Shown: positions 41,863-47,442, counted from the stretch's first letter. The stretch is DNA of 64,000 bases from an uncultured Chloroflexia bacterium (GCA_963768705.1 CAVYJE010000025.1:161341-225340), one strand, 5' to 3'. The notes: a model not told the origin generated them from the sequence alone. Program-made: numbers and translations.

Positions 41863-42183
41863 ATGACAGATCTCATCGGTAACCAGTCTGATCTCTTGAT
41901 CCTCGCCGTGCTGCAGACCGGGCCGGCGCATGGCTACGCCATCATCCAGGCGATCAAGTCTCGAAGCGACGAGGCGTTTGACCTGCCTGAGGGCACGATT
42001 TACCCGGCGCTGCACCGTCTCGAGCGCGAAGGCTTTCTAGTCAGCGCCTGGTCTGTGGTCGAGGGCCGTCGCCGCCGCATCTACGACCTGAGCGCCGCCG
42101 GACGAGAGGCCCTCGTCGAGAAGCGACAGGCCTGGGCCCAGTTCACCTCCGCGATGAACTCGGTGATTGGAGCGACGACATGA
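41863..42183 (+). CDS. PadR-family transcriptional regulator
   Basis: 106 aa with the motifs LLILAVLQTGPAHGYAI and GTIYPALHRLEREGFL. Confidence 0.85.
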   Translation: MTDLIGNQSDLLILAVLQTGPAHGYAIIQAIKSRSDEAFDLPEGTIYPALHRLEREGFLVSAWSVVEGRRRRIYDLSAAGREALVEKRQAWAQFTSAMNSVIGATT

Positions 42184-42950
42184 ACCAGCGAACTTCCATC
42201 CAGCAGTACCTGGACCAGCTCGCGGATCTCTTGCTCGTGTCCCCCCGGCGGGCGCGTCGCATCCTCGCCGAGGTGGAGGACCACCTCTCGGCGGCACGCC
42301 AGGAGCTCATCGATAGCGGCATGTCGCCGGAGGAGGCAGAGGCGACGGCGCTGCGGCAGTTCGGCTCGCCTGCAGTCGTGGCGCGCGACTTCCGCCGGCA
42401 GTCGGCGCTGTCGTGGCTGTCGTTTATCGAGGCGGTTGGGACGCCGCTGATTGGCCTCGCTGCCGTCGGGCTGATTGCGATTGGACTCAGCGGCGTGCTG
42501 GCGTTCGCCATCGGGGTCATCGCCGGCAAGGACTACGTGGCAGGCGACGCGCCGGGTGTGACCTACACGGCCAGTCGCTGCGCCGAGTATCTGCAGCTCT
42601 ATCCCGGGGCGGGCGACTGCACCTCGGCGGCGTTGGCAGACCACTTCGATGAGGTGGTGGGCTTCCGGGTGGCTGCCGGTGTTCTCGGCCTCATCGGGTT
42701 GGGCGTCTACTTCGCGACGCGCCGTTTGCGCCGTCCCGTGCGCATGCCGGCGGCCTTCGCGCCGACCCTTGGCTTGGCGGCGTTTGCTCCCGTGGGCATA
42801 GGCCTAATGGGACTTGGCGTTATGCAGACCGTATCGGGCGGTGGCGGTGGAGGAGCGAATGTAGCGGCCGGTCTCGTCGCGCTGATCTTCGCCGCCGTGT
42901 TCGCGATGCGGCTGGTGCCGATGCTGATGCCGCAGGTAGCCTCAGAGTAG
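42180..42950 (+). CDS. Membrane protein with N-terminal HAAS / permease-prefix domain (PadR-associated sensor-like)
   Basis: The start overlaps the PadR stop (ATGA). The N-terminus (IQQYLDQLADLL...ILAEVEDHLSAARQELIDSGMSPEEAEATALRQFGSP) is followed by 4 TM helices. Confidence 0.65.
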   Translation: MNQRTSIQQYLDQLADLLLVSPRRARRILAEVEDHLSAARQELIDSGMSPEEAEATALRQFGSPAVVARDFRRQSALSWLSFIEAVGTPLIGLAAVGLIAIGLSGVLAFAIGVIAGKDYVAGDAPGVTYTASRCAEYLQLYPGAGDCTSAALADHFDEVVGFRVAAGVLGLIGLGVYFATRRLRRPVRMPAAFAPTLGLAAFAPVGIGLMGLGVMQTVSGGGGGGANVAAGLVALIFAAVFAMRLVPMLMPQVASE

Positions 42951-43191
42951 GGCTTTCACCTCGACGGGGAGAAAGCGTTTGGCCAAGAAACGCGGTGTGC
43001 CCTTTCCGAAGACGGAGAGGGGGCTAGGGGTGAGCTGTGCCAGCGCCTCGGAACGCAATCGAGCCCTACGCGTCCTACGACAAGCTCAGAGCAAACGGTA
43101 ATGACTGACTCGCGGCAAAGGCACCGACCAGTGGTTCGTATTCGGGCAAGTGCTTCGCAATCAGCAGCGGCAGCCCTCTGCCGTAACGCAG

Positions 43192-43467
43192 TTACCCCCC
43201 GGCGACCGCGGGCACGATCGAGACTTCGTCGCCGGCCTTGAGGGCCGAGCCGAGGCCTTCCATGAAGCGGACGTCCTCGCCGTTGATGTAGACGTTGACG
43301 AAGCGGCGCAGCTCGCCGGTCTCGTCGCAGATGCGCTCTTTGATCCCCGGAAACGAGGTCTCGAGGCCGTCAATGCAGACAGCGAGCGTGCCTTCTTCGC
43401 CAGCGACCACGTCCTGCTCGCCGGTGAGACCGCGCAGCGGCGTTGGAATACGAACCTTTACGGACAT
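43192..43467 (-). CDS. MoaD/ThiS-family sulfur-carrier protein (C-terminal Gly-Gly)
   Basis: 91 aa ending ..VSIVPAVAGG*, with a beta-grasp-like pattern (VKVRIPTPLR..., FVNVYINGEDV). Confidence 0.75.
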   Translation of the reverse strand: MSVKVRIPTPLRGLTGEQDVVAGEEGTLAVCIDGLETSFPGIKERICDETGELRRFVNVYINGEDVRFMEGLGSALKAGDEVSIVPAVAGG

Positions 43468-43484
43468 CCTTTACCCCGTCCTAC

Positions 43485-43748
43485 TTAGTGAAAACCGCCC
43501 ATGCTCCGGCGCCGGAGCTTCTGTGATGCATGCTCCACCGCCGACTCCCAGCTCCGATTGCCCTTCGCGTCGGTCATCGGCGCCGGCTCGTATCGGTCGA
43601 ACGGCGAAGCGGGGTTCTTCCGTCTTGCCCGGTCGATCGTCGCCGGGCTGATCTCGGCGTTGCGCATGCACAGCACGCCGAGGCCCATGACCAGAACCAT
43701 AAAGGCCACTGGCAGCATCATGCTAACGAACATCCAGACTAAGAACAT
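43485..43748 (-). CDS. Small membrane protein (87 aa), unknown function
   Basis: The ATG overlaps the NIL gene stop (TGATG). It has one or two TM helices (MFLVWMFVSMMLPVAFMVLVMGLGVL) and a basic tail. Confidence 0.4.
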   Translation of the reverse strand: MFLVWMFVSMMLPVAFMVLVMGLGVLCMRNAEISPATIDRARRKNPASPFDRYEPAPMTDAKGNRSWESAVEHASQKLRRRSMGGFH

Positions 43749-43999
43749 CAGCCCTCGATGATGCTGTCTTCGATCGGGTCGACGCGCACACCGCGCTCTT
43801 CGACCCACTTCAAGCCCTGCTCCAGGTCCTGCTTCTCACCGTCCAGCTCGAGCACCGCCCAGGCGATCTCCGCCGTGACGTCAGCGCGCCGGATGTTCGT
43901 CATCAGGTCGAAGCGCTTGCCGACCTCCCAGATGATCGGTTCCCGGATCTGCTCTGAAGGGAAGGTGAACTTCACTCTCGCCTTGGCCATATCGGACAC
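43748..43999 (-). CDS. NIL-domain protein
   Basis: 83 aa (KARVKFTFPSEQIREPIIWEVGKRFDLMTNIRRADV...AWAVLELDGEKQDLEQGLKWVEERGVRV). The pattern matches the NIL domain found at the C-terminus of MetN-type ATPases. Confidence 0.65.
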   Translation of the reverse strand: MSDMAKARVKFTFPSEQIREPIIWEVGKRFDLMTNIRRADVTAEIAWAVLELDGEKQDLEQGLKWVEERGVRVDPIEDSIIEG

Positions 44000-44041
44000 C
44001 CTCCTTCCTCCTTGTCTTTCTAAAGATACACGAGCGTTGGT

Positions 44042-44125
44042 TGCTCAGTAACAAGTAACAGCTAGCACGTGACAAGCACCGAGGCCGAGGCCTCTTGTGA
44101 CTGTTACTGGTTACTTTACTTGTTA
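44042..44125. repeat. Long imperfect inverted repeat with 7-nt periodicity and a central GAGGCC-GA-GGCCTC hairpin
   Basis: TGCTCAG TAACAAG TAACAG... faces CTTGTGA CTGTTAC TGGTTAC TTTACTT. It lies between the ThrC-family gene and the NIL gene. Confidence 0.65.
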
Positions 44126-44132
44126 TGCCTAC

Positions 44133-45383
44133 TCACACGGTTACGGGGCTGCGGCCTCCGTGGCGCTCCAGCAGGGCCGCCTCGAACGATTCAACCGTGG
44201 GCTTCACGTTCAAGGCTTCGGGCACGGAGTCCGCGACGGCTTCTTGCGTCTTCAGGCCGCCGCCCGTGATGCAGGCAACGATGACCTCGTCCGGGTGGAC
44301 GTGGCCGTTGGCGACGAGCTGTCGCAGGCCCGCAACGGTAACGCCGCCAGCCGTCTCGGCGAAGATGCCCTCGGTCTCGGCCAGGAGCTTGATGCCCTCG
44401 ACGACCTCGGGGTCGCTGACGGAAGCGCCGGCGCCGTTGGTGTCCTGCATGATCTTCAGCGTGTAGTAGCCGTCCGCCGGGTTGCCGATGGCCAGCGACT
44501 TCGCGATCGTGTTGGGTCGCACGGGCCTGAACGTGAGCGTGTTGTTCTTCCAGGCCGTGATGATCGGCGAGCAGCCGTCGGCCTGGCAGCCCGACATGCG
44601 CGTCTGCTTCTCCTCGATGAGGCCGAGCTGCGTCAGCTCCTTGAGGCCCTTGTAGATCTTGCCGTACAGAGAGCCCGAGGCCAGCGGCACGATGCAGTGG
44701 TCCGGCGCCCGCCAGCCAAGCTGCTCGGCGATCTCGTACGCCATGGTCTTCGAGCCTTCGGAGTAGTAGGGGCGGACGTTGATGTTGACGAAGGCCCACG
44801 GGTACTTGCCGCCGAGCTCGGAGCAGAGGCGGTTGACGTCATCGTAGGAGCCGTCGACAGCGACGAGGTTGGCGCCGTAGATCTTCGAGCCCAGGAGCTT
44901 GCCTGCTTCGAGGTCGCTGGGCACGAAGACGAAGGCCTCCATGCCTGCCTTCGCGGCGTGGGCGGAGACGGCGTTCGCCAGGTTGCCGGTGGAGGCGCAG
45001 GCGAGGGTCTTGTAGCCCAGCTCGCGCGCCTTGCTCGACGCGACGGCGACGACGCGGTCCTTGAAGCTCCACGTCGGGTTGGCGCAGTCGTTCTTGAGGT
45101 AGAGGTTCTTCAGGCCCAGGTGCTCGCCGAGGTTGGTGGCGCGCAGCAGGGGCGTGAAGCCGGCGTTGAGGTCGACGGGCTCACCTTCGACGGGCAGGAG
45201 GTCCTTGTAGCGCCAGACGGAGTAGGGACCCTGCTCGATGCTCTGGTGCGAGATGCTCTGCTTCATCGCCTCGTAGTCGTAGACGACTTCGAGGGGGCCG
45301 AAGCAGAACTCGCAGACGTGGCTGGCGGTCATGGCGTATTCGCGACCGCACTCCCGGCAACGAAGGGCTTTTGCGAAGGACAT
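44133..45383 (-). CDS. Threonine-synthase-family PLP enzyme with N-terminal zinc ribbon (ThrC or ThrC-like sulfur-incorporating enzyme)
   Basis: Intact 416-aa ORF. It has an N-terminal Cys4 motif (CRECG...CEFC), the PLP-lysine motif PTWSFKDR and a GGLKT region. AAGAGG lies upstream of the ATG. Confidence 0.85.
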   Translation of the reverse strand: MSFAKALRCRECGREYAMTASHVCEFCFGPLEVVYDYEAMKQSISHQSIEQGPYSVWRYKDLLPVEGEPVDLNAGFTPLLRATNLGEHLGLKNLYLKNDCANPTWSFKDRVVAVASSKARELGYKTLACASTGNLANAVSAHAAKAGMEAFVFVPSDLEAGKLLGSKIYGANLVAVDGSYDDVNRLCSELGGKYPWAFVNINVRPYYSEGSKTMAYEIAEQLGWRAPDHCIVPLASGSLYGKIYKGLKELTQLGLIEEKQTRMSGCQADGCSPIITAWKNNTLTFRPVRPNTIAKSLAIGNPADGYYTLKIMQDTNGAGASVSDPEVVEGIKLLAETEGIFAETAGGVTVAGLRQLVANGHVHPDEVIVACITGGGLKTQEAVADSVPEALNVKPTVESFEAALLERHGGRSPVTV

Positions 45384-45685
45384 TGGCGATACCTCTTATG
45401 GAGTAACGGCCTCCGAGGCGGAGACCTGAATGAGCGATTCGGCTATCGATGATAGTGCGAGGGAGTAGTGAAAGTCCCCGCGTCAGGCGAGACGCAGGGA
45501 CGGTCGCATCGCCATGCCGGCGCCGGGACGGGCAACGGGGCGTTTGTGGCTCACCAACACATTATGTCGGCCCATAGTAGGCGAAATCGTATCGCACCCC
45601 CCGAAGGGGGTCAACCCGAATTGTTTATGCCTCCAGCCGAATCGCAGTCGAGGCCATTGTGTGGTGCGTACGAAGGCCACGATAT

Positions 45686-45713
45686 TTGACATCTGGAACG
45701 ACCGTTCTATAAT
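45686..45713 (+). promoter_or_regulatory. Perfect consensus sigma-70-type promoter TTGACA-N16-TATAAT, 9 nt before the TcmP-like ATG
   Basis: TTGACA is at 45686-45691 and TATAAT at 45708-45713. The predicted start site lies about 2-3 nt before the ATG at 45723, so the mRNA would be effectively leaderless, and no SD sequence is present. Confidence 0.6.
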
Positions 45714-45722
45714 TCATCCACT

Positions 45723-46505
45723 ATGCCAAGGATCGTGGGCGACTGGACCCGGGACAAACTTCGAATCCTGCAGACCTATCTACCAGGATATCTTCAGGCG
45801 ACAACAGCGGCTCGCGAACGTATTTACATCGATGCCTTCGCGGGGCCAGGCACAAATCGTCTGGAGAGTTCCGGCCAAGTTATCGATGGCTCCCCGCTGA
45901 TCGCCTTGAAGGCTCGAGCGCAAAACGAGACCGAGTTTAGCCGCTACTTTTTCATTGAGCGAGATCCCCATCTAGCGGATGAGCTAAGGGCGAACATCCA
46001 GACGTACTTCCCATCGCGCCGGATAGAGGTGATTACGGGAGACGTAAATGTAGAGCTTCCTCGGGTTGTACGAGGCCTACCAAAGCAATCGCCGACGTTT
46101 GTTTTCCTGGATACGGAAGGCATTGATCCTCAGTGGAGAACAATTGTCTCAATCTCCGACTGGCGTGTTGAGTTTCTCATCAACTTTCCACTTGGGATGA
46201 GCATCAATCGGAATGCGGACAGCCGGAAGACCTTGGAGTACTTTGGAACGGACGAATGCCTTGATCTGCTCAGGCGCAGTGACTCGGGCCGTACCCGGGC
46301 CCTACTAGACCTCTATAAGAGTCGTCTCGCAGCTCTTGGCTTTCTGTATACGACCGAGAATGATCTCTTGATCAAGACCATAGCCAACGTGCGGCTGTAC
46401 TACCTTGTGTTCGTCAGCAAGGTCGAGCCGGCGCAGACCATTATGAACTGGGTTTTCAGACAGCCTGACGTGCGGGGGCAAGGGCGTCTTGATCTCCAGG
46501 GTTAG
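45723..46505 (+). CDS. TcmP-like protein (three-Cys-motif partner protein family; Rossmann methyltransferase-like)
   Basis: Intact 260-aa ORF with W-x3-K-x6-YL at the N-terminus, then IYIDAFAGPG, FIERD, VFLDTEG and a C-terminal helical part. G+C is clearly lower than the flanking sequence. Confidence 0.7.
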   Translation: MPRIVGDWTRDKLRILQTYLPGYLQATTAARERIYIDAFAGPGTNRLESSGQVIDGSPLIALKARAQNETEFSRYFFIERDPHLADELRANIQTYFPSRRIEVITGDVNVELPRVVRGLPKQSPTFVFLDTEGIDPQWRTIVSISDWRVEFLINFPLGMSINRNADSRKTLEYFGTDECLDLLRRSDSGRTRALLDLYKSRLAALGFLYTTENDLLIKTIANVRLYYLVFVSKVEPAQTIMNWVFRQPDVRGQGRLDLQG

Positions 46506-47226
46506 GCATTTCATCCCAGGTAGTCTGGTCGAGAAGACGGCCACTTTTCTTCTTGCCCAGTTTGTTGCCTGCTTCATCGTGTGTCCCCCACTGCTTGAAG
46601 AAGAACGGCACGCCAGCTCTCTTGCATTGTTCACGGACTGAGCGAACCCATTCCACACTCATAGGTCGGGCCCGGTGACCGCTCTCGCCTCCAACGATGA
46701 CCCAGTGAATGTCAGTCAAATTCAAGTCATTCAACGGCCCCAGTAGTGGTTCGCAGGACAGGAACCTAACCTGCGCGGGCACCTCGCGGAGCCAATCGAT
46801 ACGCGATGTCCAACGCTGGTTCTCGACTGATACGCCGACCCAGACGTTGGGAGGGAACGGCAACTCATCCGCCAAGCCAGCCAAGCGTTCGGGTCTCTTT
46901 GTTAGTAACTGGAAGGTGTGCCAGTCGGCAGCTTCCATCGTGGCGAATACGCCTTTGATGAATTTGTCTGGCACGTCTTTGTGGAAAAGGTCGCTCATGC
47001 TGTTGACGAAGATGAGCTTCGACTTCTTCCAGGTTAGCGGCTGTTGGAGTCGCTCATGGCGCAGGGTGAGGTCAAAGCCTCGCTCGTATGGATGATCGGG
47101 AACGCCTCTAAAACGCTCGGCGAACGTCTTCGCATAGCAGTTCGCACATCCCGGGGACACCTGGGTGCACCCGGTCACGGGGTTCCAGGTTGCTTCTGTC
47201 CACTCGATGTGACTGTTAAGGCTCAT
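46456..47226 (-). CDS. DUF5131 / phage Gp37-Gp68 family three-Cys-motif protein
   Basis: Intact 256-aa ORF opening SHIEWTEATWNPVTGCTQVSPGCANCYA (C-x5-C-x2-C), then FVNSMSDLFH, FLSCEPLLGP, VIVGGESG and FFFKQWG. It overlaps the 3' end of the TcmP-like gene by 50 bp. Confidence 0.75.
   Translation of the reverse strand: MSLNSHIEWTEATWNPVTGCTQVSPGCANCYAKTFAERFRGVPDHPYERGFDLTLRHERLQQPLTWKKSKLIFVNSMSDLFHKDVPDKFIKGVFATMEAADWHTFQLLTKRPERLAGLADELPFPPNVWVGVSVENQRWTSRIDWLREVPAQVRFLSCEPLLGPLNDLNLTDIHWVIVGGESGHRARPMSVEWVRSVREQCKRAGVPFFFKQWGTHDEAGNKLGKKKSGRLLDQTTWDEMPNPGDQDALAPARQAV

Positions 47227-47367: not shown

Positions 47368-47442
<75 letters not shown>

Follow-up and report, generated by a model that had tools for sequence, protein, structure and literature searches.

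A probable MetM/MetO-type methionine-pathway operon with a stand-alone NIL-domain gene and a methionine-codon leader in a Chloroflexia genome

Why would an enzyme that carries the name threonine synthase share an operon with a NIL-domain protein, a small membrane protein and a sulfur carrier? The question is raised by positions 43192-45383 (minus strand) of a 64,000-nucleotide stretch of DNA from an uncultured Chloroflexia bacterium, here called the window (C25:161341-225340 of G000, a 4.14-Mb genome), whose closest public relatives are Dehalococcoidia/Chloroflexota metagenome-assembled genomes. Four open reading frames (ORFs) follow one another here in the same direction, encoding an enzyme of 416 amino acids (aa; 44133-45383), a stand-alone NIL-domain protein (43748-43990), a small single-pass membrane protein of 87 aa (43485-43748) and a carrier protein of 91 aa with a free C-terminal Gly-Gly (43192-43467). 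The last three are tightly packed, as the stop codon of the NIL gene and the ATG of the small ORF overlap by one base (TGATG), and 17 nucleotides (nt) separate the small ORF from the carrier gene. A sequence-only reading of the window had described this layout correctly, and had proposed that the annotated threonine synthase may instead, or also, be a thiocarboxylate-dependent (homo)cysteine synthase.

Our analysis supports that proposal in a narrower form. The best explanation of the locus as a whole, to which we give a probability of roughly 0.78 from comparative evidence, is a methionine-pathway operon of the MetM/MetO kind that is under the control of the NIL protein and of a leader with methionine codons, and that includes a genuine gene for a membrane protein. 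Within it, the enzyme and the carrier are most likely a homocysteine synthase of the MetM/MetO type, using O-phosphohomoserine and a protein thiocarboxylate. This assignment is favored because a canonical thrC and a thrB are present separately, because the enzyme shares a clade with a riboswitch- and carrier-linked gene of Nonomuraea, and because MetB/Y/Z and MetX were not found.

The enzyme, its carrier and the homocysteine route

The enzyme belongs to the threonine synthase family, as had been recognized before. It matches the PALP domain (2.6e-72) and gives a zinc-ribbon-like match to NinF. Cys9, Cys12, Cys24 and Cys27 make up an N-terminal zinc ribbon of the form CxxC...CxxC, and K108 is the lysine of the pyridoxal phosphate (PLP) motif SFKDR. 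Every named homologue in the protein search is labelled "threonine synthase". Cysteine-synthase models reach at best 40.7 bits on the enzyme against a cut-off of 387, which places it outside the cysKM subfamily.

It is not the only ThrC-family gene in its genome, a point on which the earlier proposal depended. G000 holds three such genes, namely the window copy on contig C25, a copy on C16 and a copy on C24. The C16 copy is the canonical ThrC, with 317 bits on the model TIGR00260 and 57-59% identity to Firmicute thrC genes that adjoin hom and thrB. A canonical ThrC copy also exists beside the MetM-type gene in all six relatives examined. Judged by its sequence, the 416-aa enzyme is distinct from the threonine synthase of the cell. 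The third paralogue (C24:62452-63612; locus L003:1195-2505) belongs to another subfamily with a zinc ribbon and scores 609 bits on PRK08197. Its relatives are proteobacterial and from Chlorohelix, and it shares 54-59% identity with genes of Azospirillum and Chlorohelix that are labelled "threonine synthase" and lie beside ABC-transporter or phosphoglycerate-dehydrogenase genes. The stretch examined around it showed no adjacent carrier gene.

The nearest named relative of the enzyme is a gene of Nonomuraea gerenzanensis with 51.7% identity, and the next best matches have at most 38%. The Nonomuraea gene lies directly behind an S-adenosylmethionine (SAM) riboswitch of the SAM-I class (68.7 bits), and a 91-aa carrier ending in GG follows it directly, with no NIL gene between. 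Maximum-likelihood analysis groups the enzyme and 15 orthologues with this gene of Nonomuraea at a support of 100/99. This clade stands apart from canonical ThrC, from a PRK08197-type clade and from a haloarchaeal-type clade, and CysK/CysM form a distant outgroup. Given the length of the Nonomuraea branch, its precise placement is less secure than these values imply, but the exclusion of the enzyme from the canonical clade is clear.

The arrangement of the Nonomuraea locus (SAM riboswitch, enzyme, carrier) matches the metM-metO layout of Streptomyces albulus as given in PMC12172450. According to the GapMind 2026 summary (PMC13759103) of Hasebe et al. 2024 (Appl Environ Microbiol 90:e01247-24), MetO is a sulfur-carrier protein that is charged with sulfur by MoeZ and matured by Mec. 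In the same summary, MetM makes homocysteine from O-phosphohomoserine and depends on the thiocarboxylate of MetO to do so. The sequence-only reading had pointed to this system without settling which small protein corresponds to MetO. These two sources settle the point, since MetO is there a carrier of the ThiS/MoaD type and not a NIL protein. The chemistry that we assign to the present operon is taken from the Streptomyces work as these sources relate it; our own observations concern gene content, clade placement, gene order, helper genes and the failure to find another homocysteine route.

The candidate MetO of the window is a beta-grasp protein of the ThiS/MoaD kind, in keeping with its first description. 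It matches the ThiS family (1.9e-16), exceeds the cut-offs of the SAMP1 and moaD_arch models, and along its full 91 residues shares 55% identity with the carrier encoded after the MetM-like gene of Nonomuraea. Its gene ends AGG-stop in translation, so that the protein already carries Gly-Gly at its C-terminus.

The association of these genes was tested by comparison with 80 related Dehalococcoidia/Chloroflexota loci, in which the enzyme is 66-93% identical to that of the window. The order enzyme-NIL-carrier is kept in 72 of them, the remaining eight including contigs that end prematurely, and the gap between the NIL and carrier genes has a median of 62 nt. This conserved arrangement is more than chance. 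Both findings that had been named in advance as fatal to the proposal thus turned out the other way: the enzyme stands outside the canonical ThrC clade in a genome with its own thrC, and the NIL and MoaD-type genes are conserved together with it.

The gene content of G000 and of six relatives, among which are several single-chromosome assemblies, fits a homocysteine route of this kind. Among these seven genomes, the Cys_Met_Meta_PP family (MetB/C/Y/Z) gives weak partial matches alone (at most 36 bits, the best covering about 130 of 381 positions), and no match to MetX exceeds 40 bits, over about 50 residues, which is no real match. Both metX and metY were among the genes for which the sequence-only reading had proposed to check the genome. 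No other homocysteine route was found in the seven genomes, in searches that did not include MetA (PF04204), MetH or DUF39. ThrB is above its cut-off in all seven. MetE-like genes occur in six, including G000, and none was found in G004. The related Meth_synt_2 family, which resembles the C-terminal part of MetE, is expanded, with 24-25 matches in three genomes, 10 in G002, two each in G005 and G006, and none in G004; its numbers suggest a methyltransferase family that extends beyond methionine synthase.

The helper genes for a sulfur carrier, which had also been proposed as a check, are present as well. A ThiF-type activating enzyme (E1) and a JAMM protease (75-92 bits on Prok-JAB) were each found in 7/7 genomes. 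In the relative G005, the genes for enzyme, NIL protein and carrier are followed directly by a cluster of an Rrf2 regulator, CysK, two ThiS-ThiF fusion ORFs, CysM and a JAMM gene (L059:8019-12969). The equivalent cluster of G000 lies on another contig (C8:241657-245700), apart from the operon, and is broken over several frames. The ThiS domain of each fusion ends in ...AIAGG and runs straight into the E1 domain. Such fused carriers would need to be cleaved after Gly-Gly, perhaps by the neighboring JAMM enzyme.

In the pathway that we propose, homoserine kinase would supply O-phosphohomoserine. The MetM-type PLP enzyme would then swap its phosphate for sulfur from the C-terminal thiocarboxylate of the 91-aa carrier, and the homocysteine so formed would be methylated to methionine by a MetE-like enzyme. 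The ThiF-type E1 encoded elsewhere in the genome would adenylate and sulfurate the carrier. No prior trimming would be required, because the carrier already ends in Gly-Gly, and for the same reason the JAMM protease would not be needed for this carrier.

Several observations count against this assignment. The enzyme passes the cut-offs of two NCBIfam "threonine synthase" models, reaching 285 bits on TIGR00260 and 307 bits on PRK08197, where the cut-off is 303, and it may on this ground retain some ThrC activity. A cyanobacterial homologue has threonine synthase and deaminase activity in vitro, according to PMC12172450. Orthology to the characterized MetM of S. albulus (UniProt A0A059WBP2) rests on the actinomycete gene from Nonomuraea as a proxy. 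The E1 region of G000 (C8:243.1-244.2 kb) is split over several frames, the E1s of the relatives are ThiS-ThiF fusions without a rhodanese domain, and G000 is only 68.7% complete.

The same model scores and the cyanobacterial activity are what one would cite for a different view, in which the cell simply has two threonine synthase isozymes, this enzyme being an ordinary one, and the NIL and MoaD-type genes serve some other end such as molybdopterin synthesis or tRNA thiolation. The best solved relatives of the enzyme are also threonine synthases. We nonetheless regard an isozyme as improbable. Every genome examined has a better-scoring canonical ThrC, the enzyme forms part of a separate and well-supported clade, and its linkage to the carrier is kept in 72/80 loci. 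The elements upstream of the operon are SAM riboswitches and a methionine-codon leader, not threonine signals, and no other homocysteine route came to light where it was sought. It is highly improbable, in our estimate, that the cluster is instead a cysteine synthase like CysO/CysM, acting on O-phosphoserine or O-acetylserine with a carrier thiocarboxylate. CysO, like this carrier, is of the ThiS/MoaD type, and carrier-dependent sulfur chemistry is evident in the genome from the ThiS-ThiF fusions adjoining CysK and CysM. However, the enzyme lies in the ThrC branch, far from the CysK/CysM outgroup and with no more than 41 bits on cysteine synthase models; dedicated CysK and CysM genes with carriers of their own lie elsewhere; and the control elements would answer to SAM or methionine. 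The separate CysK/CysM and ThiS-ThiF cluster and the SAM riboswitch before the operons of relatives thus narrow the original "(homo)cysteine" claim to homocysteine.

The leader ahead of the enzyme gene

A SAM-I riboswitch lies ahead of the operon in 4/11 relatives scanned (L024, L030, L038 and L059). The window is different. An Rfam search of positions 42900-46000 at E<=1 returned no match, so that no SAM-I riboswitch model (RF00162) matches before its operon. An alignment of the upstream regions of nine close relatives shows what is kept instead: a promoter-like site, an ATG just past the predicted transcript start, the invariant ATGGCGATG, a hairpin with covarying stems, and a second GC hairpin ahead of the ribosome-binding site.

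All of these elements lie on the minus strand of the window. The promoter-like site, TTGACC-17 nt-TACGAT (45586-45614), comes from a consensus scan and is a pattern match only, although its TTGA and TAnnAT blocks are kept in the 9 relatives; it would set the transcript start a few bases before the ATG of the leader. A mini-ORF of 30 codons, MGRHNVLVSHKRPVARPGAGMAMRPSLRLA-stop, occupies 45483-45575 and was recognized by a frame test. It contains the invariant ATG-GCG-ATG (Met-Ala-Met; 45507-45515), whose RNA, UGGCGAUGC at 45506-45514, is complementary to the initiation region of the enzyme gene. The partner in this pairing is GUAUCGCCA (45384-45392), between the Shine-Dalgarno sequence and the enzyme start codon. 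Hairpin 1, with an 11-base-pair (bp) stem (45474-45501), begins 5 nt past the second Met codon and holds the leader stop codon in its 3' half. Hairpin 2, GGUCUCCG-CCUC-GGAGGCC (45408-45426), is terminator-like in the fold results, with a weak U tract here. At the hairpin-2 site of relatives such as L008, L011, L014 and L044, a GC stem is followed by a clear U run.

The motif is widespread, and so is the frame that contains it. ATG-NNN-ATG occurs within 260 nt upstream of the enzyme gene in 78/80 loci, with a middle codon that varies (GCG, GCA, GCT, GTG or ACG) and with both ATGs fixed. In 74 of these 78 loci an in-frame ATG lies upstream with no stop codon before the motif, compared with 6/78 and 7/78 for the other two frames. 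Among the nine close relatives the leader frame is kept despite 11-51 intervening codons, and in 28 loci the leader starts exactly five codons before the motif. Over the 74 loci taken together, 8.1% of leader codons encode methionine, against 1.7% in the enzyme of the window, and several loci have extra Met codons beside the motif, as in MMNGMMAM and AMMAM.

RNA structure is conserved along with the frame. A GC-rich hairpin follows the motif by 0-5 nt in 78/78 loci, and the stems of hairpin 1 can be said to covary since the sequence differs among loci while the hairpin stays. The leader of the window folds better than shuffled sequences (z = -2.76), and its minimum-energy fold contains a 9-bp pairing of the motif RNA with the initiation region. 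Across the 78 loci, the duplex of motif and initiation region has a median energy of -16.6 kcal/mol and beats 95% of shuffles in 46. The spacer ATCGCC before the enzyme start is widely conserved.

The simplest model that fits these comparisons is that the leader is a translational attenuator of the enzyme gene. When Met-tRNA is plentiful, the leader would be read quickly and the motif would pair again with the initiation region. When charged Met-tRNA is scarce, a ribosome would dwell on the Met codons and the initiation region would stay open. A classical 2:3 antiterminator was considered and rejected, as blocking the Met codons in silico left hairpin 2 undissolved. The same block of the motif freed the initiation region, and because hairpin 2 stayed intact, unmasking of the initiation region is favored over transcription antitermination in the window. 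Its translation may begin on a transcript that is leaderless or nearly so. A full-text literature search turned up no report of methionine genes with a Met-codon leader, although absence there is not proof.

Not every part of the data agrees with attenuation. The complementarity test fails in 32/78 loci, some of them through mis-set start coordinates, an SD-like (Shine-Dalgarno-like) 4-mer precedes the nearest in-frame leader ATG in only 15/74, and hairpin 2 of the window lacks a good U tract.

The NIL protein and the small membrane protein

The NIL gene was called as an 83-aa ORF starting from GTG at 43999 (43748-43999), with 49.1 bits on PF09383 against a cut-off of 24. Its true start is probably the ATG at 43990, because most homologues have 80 aa and AAGGAGG lies just upstream. 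Depending on this choice, 133 nt or 142 nt separate it from the enzyme gene. The 133-nt spacer contains an inverted repeat, yet it folds no better than shuffles (z = -1.1), and a lone terminator-like pattern within it is within chance expectation.

This is the only NIL domain in each of the 7 genomes. We compared 40 orthologues that are 50-94% identical, and R5, K7, F8, T9, F10, P18, T31, N32, R34, R35, A36, W44, W62 and D71 are invariant among them. The C-terminus, ...DPVxGDIVEG, is near-invariant, with E79 and G80 in at least 90% of the sequences. None of the 40 contains a cysteine.

When a profile of the orthologues was compared with solved structures, MetN C2 domains were the only matches, and the alignment sets N32 of the NIL protein against N295 of MetN and A36 against A299. 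The AlphaFold (AF2) model has a mean predicted local distance difference test score (pLDDT) of 90.9 and a ferredoxin-like beta-alpha-beta-beta-alpha-beta fold with a flexible tail (pLDDT ~65). Its 11 best matches in the PDB are MetN C2/NIL domains, headed by 3dhw_C with a template modelling (TM) score of 0.83 and a root-mean-square deviation (rmsd) of 1.3 Å. In MetN, bound methionine forms a hydrogen bond with N295 of the partner subunit, the strands at A299 pair across the dimer, and the N295A substitution lowers L-methionine binding to an undetectable level (PMC6233128). The fold matches and the invariant N32 and A36 at these two positions lead us to read the NIL protein as a probable methionine sensor; it is probably a methionine-binding dimer and a feedback regulator. 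It would bind L-methionine as MetN C2 does and so dampen the enzyme or the carrier cycle.

Of 301 evenly sampled Chloroflexota genomes, 94 have a NIL gene of the operon type and about 115 a MetM-type enzyme (at least 49% identity), and the two are adjacent in about 38-41 by our reading of two coordinate tables. In roughly two thirds of the MetM-type-positive Chloroflexota sampled, NIL is missing or lies elsewhere, and it is absent from the Nonomuraea locus. Because the gene is missing from so many MetM-type loci, the NIL protein is, by this comparison, no core catalytic part of the pathway. A tblastn search of the protein against a plasmid collection found nothing.

The same NIL subtype also occurs in another setting. 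Another Chloroflexota family has it joined to the C-terminal end of a GFO/IDH/MocA oxidoreductase, far from any MetM-type gene (L119:1835-3106, L121:2431-3684 and L120:529-3282, checked with Pfam in L119 and L121), and the tail is kept as ..DPVEGDVVSG. A 430-aa frame in one Chloroflexota family that we had suspected of being a MetM-NIL fusion proved to be such an oxidoreductase-NIL protein, with no MetM gene nearby. Members of the same class that have small genomes encode NIL proteins of 140-160 aa and lack a MetM-type gene; these NIL proteins are presumed to be the NIL-ferredoxin partners of the DUF39 route discussed below.

The 87-aa ORF between the NIL and carrier genes had been left without an explanation. 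It encodes an N-terminal hydrophobic helix, a basic stretch and a conserved C-terminal helix, ...WESxxExxxQKLRRRxMG, and neither it nor two relatives' copies match a family in Pfam or NCBIfam. In a comparison with L006, a 93%-identical relative, 47 bases have changed over 264 nt without any insertion or deletion, and the ratio of nonsynonymous to synonymous substitution rates (dN/dS) is 0.185. The flanking genes in the same comparison have dN/dS of 0.107 and 0.055 at dS of 0.3-0.46. Same-strand ORFs of 70-87 aa occupy the same slot in L006, L007 (two), L008, L010 (two), L013 and probably L011, and share the N-terminal hydrophobic helix with a conserved Pro, the basic stretch and the C-terminal motif. 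The ORF is single-copy in G000, without paralogues, and is absent from about 60 of 72 related loci. On these comparisons it is a genuine gene confined to close relatives. The NIL-carrier junction has taken up other, unrelated genes in L024, L071, L026, L047, L061, L062 and L067, for example one for a 123-aa protein. By eye, insertions of 223-236 aa resemble pyridoxamine-phosphate-oxidase-like flavoproteins, and insertions of 195-204 aa resemble REP-associated tyrosine transposases.

Each of these three additions to the enzyme and carrier could be explained in another way. The upstream element may be an RNA-only switch, such as an unrecognized riboswitch or a closing helix, with the Met-Ala-Met frame a by-product of pairing. 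Both pairing partners are near-invariant, so covariation is unable to prove translation; SD-like sequences are rare before the leader ATG; and in four relatives the element lies just after a SAM riboswitch, to whose expression platform it could belong. We think this somewhat unlikely. Pairing alone would not call for an open frame with an upstream ATG in 74/78 loci as opposed to 6-7/78 in the other frames, for its survival across insertions of 11-51 codons, for the extra Met codons that accumulate at the motif, or for synonymous changes in a middle codon flanked by two fixed ATGs, and no known Rfam family matches even at E = 1. For the NIL protein the alternative is a structural role, either as an adaptor or chaperone that docks the carrier on the enzyme or E1, or as a mimic whose Gly-ended tail fills the channel for the carrier tail. 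The near-invariant, flexible tail has no counterpart in MetN C2, and in the related loci that carry the trio NIL always lies directly between enzyme and carrier. Such a role is nonetheless unlikely, given that the MetN residues of the methionine site and the dimer strand are invariant here and that a protein without cysteine is unable to relay sulfur itself. Since the same subtype, tail included, is fused to an unrelated oxidoreductase, a portable regulatory module fits better than a carrier-specific adaptor. Finally, it is quite improbable that the 87-aa ORF is a chance open frame in the NIL-carrier spacer. Its lack of a family match, its absence from most loci (where the gap is short) and the readiness of this junction to take up unrelated insertions would be consistent with chance. 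However, a chance frame would hardly keep a dN/dS of 0.185 with no insertion or deletion against a relative whose flanking dS is 0.3-0.46, nor reappear on the same strand and at the same position in six further loci with a shared architecture and a recognizable C-terminal motif, and the fit of its start to the NIL stop and of its end to the next gene is close.

The putative attenuating leader, the putative methionine-binding NIL protein and the membrane gene can be combined into a more specific picture, which we offer tentatively and with more doubt than belief. Two methionine sensors of kinds not described before would govern the conversion of O-phosphohomoserine to homocysteine. One would be the self-masking Met-Ala-Met leader, stacked in some relatives behind a SAM riboswitch, and the other a free NIL protein that binds methionine as a dimer and gates use of the carrier through its Gly-ended tail. 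The membrane protein would perhaps tether the machinery in one subclade.

Neighborhood, significance and comparison with known systems

Directly upstream of the operon and divergent from it lies a pair of genes at 45723-46505 (plus strand) and 46456-47226 (minus strand), the latter with an N-terminal Cys-rich motif; the pair may correspond to TcmP with a DUF5131 (Gp37/Gp68) protein, which it resembles. A tRNA gene (47371-47442, minus strand) follows that pair and is the one tRNA gene of the whole window. Over 44-48 kb the GC content drops to 0.59-0.62, possibly the mark of a small island. Past the downstream end of the operon, 42180-42950 and 41863-42183 (plus strand) encode a 256-aa membrane protein and a small regulator that by eye is PadR-like. 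The same pair lies next to the operon in L006 (8357-9444), and it is probably unrelated to the operon.

A core of the MetM/MetO type has been known since 2024. What the present locus adds is the NIL protein, a membrane protein specific to a subclade, and a Met-codon leader that replaces or joins the SAM riboswitch; we found no descriptions of any of the three as part of the MetM/MetO route. Recognizing the core has a practical consequence. Because the enzyme passes the NCBIfam cut-offs and its named homologues carry the label "threonine synthase", pipelines give it that name, and metabolic models would then score widespread soil and subsurface Chloroflexota as methionine auxotrophs, probably wrongly. 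If our reading of the NIL protein is true, a free NIL domain in a sulfur-carrier pathway extends the role of this domain past trans-inhibition of transporters, and would link two non-canonical homocysteine routes that each include a NIL domain. If our reading of the leader is true, a Met-codon leader whose coding RNA is itself the masking sequence is a compact regulatory design and would fill a gap in leader-peptide control.

The closest known system is MetM/MetO of S. albulus, with MoeZ and Mec. The two have in common a ThrC-like enzyme whose gene is linked directly to that of a carrier of the ThiS/MoaD type, and in both a canonical ThrC is encoded separately. A JAMM protease and an E1 of the ThiF type, the latter split over several frames in G000, are likewise encoded in the genome. 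The usual route through MetX and MetB/Y/Z is likewise missing from our searches (in which MetA was not included), and operon control is linked to methionine, with a SAM riboswitch in the actinomycete homologue and in some relatives. The operon of the window differs in having a NIL gene between enzyme and carrier as well as a gene for a small membrane protein, a Met-codon leader with no SAM riboswitch match, and a carrier that ends in Gly-Gly so that trimming is unneeded. The E1s of the relatives differ from MoeZ in lacking its rhodanese domain and in having a ThiS domain at the N-terminus.

In the CysO system, a fold-type II PLP enzyme whose substrate is a phosphorylated hydroxy-amino acid receives its sulfur from the thiocarboxylate of a ubiquitin-like carrier. 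CysO-CysM-Mec-MoeZ of Mycobacterium tuberculosis, which performs protein-thiocarboxylate-dependent cysteine synthesis, is mentioned in PMC12910592. The present operon would follow the same logic, in which a carrier thiocarboxylate feeds a fold-type II PLP enzyme. It differs in that its enzyme is of the ThrC branch, its expected product is homocysteine, and a separate CysK/CysM cluster has carriers of its own. Wolinella succinogenes reportedly makes homocysteine with HcyS-HcyD-HcyF-MetY, which Krishnamoorthy and Begley are said to have described in 2011, from O-acetylhomoserine by the MetY enzyme of the Cys_Met_Meta_PP family. The sulfur for homocysteine would in both cases be held on the thiocarboxylate of a ThiS-like protein, but the seven genomes studied here have no real match to a Cys_Met_Meta_PP enzyme.

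The NIL protein has two points of comparison. With the C2 domain of E. coli MetN (PDB 3DHW, 3TUZ and 6CVL; PMC6233128) it shares the fold and the invariant equivalents of N295 and A299, at about 20% identity; it is, however, a free 80-aa protein and not the tail of an ABC ATPase, and it has an extra conserved flexible C-terminal tail. The second is the homocysteine route of methanogens and Desulfovibrio, in which DUF39 (COG1900), an L-aspartate semialdehyde sulfurtransferase, works with a NIL-ferredoxin protein (PMC13759103). There too a NIL domain accompanies a non-canonical homocysteine synthase. The enzyme family and substrate are different, and the NIL domain is fused to ferredoxin there and stands alone, without cysteine, here.

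The leader recalls the trpL, hisL and thrL leader-peptide attenuators and the translational attenuation of the ermC type. To our knowledge, control by leader peptides of the classical kind has been established for Trp, His, Leu, Thr, Phe and Ile/Val, and not for Met. In common with these systems, the leader of the window consists of a short upstream ORF with codons for the end product, a hairpin directly after them, and a predicted alternative pairing that would mask the initiation region. Unlike them, it uses Met codons, these codons would themselves be the masking sequence, and the whole arrangement can be stacked behind a SAM riboswitch.

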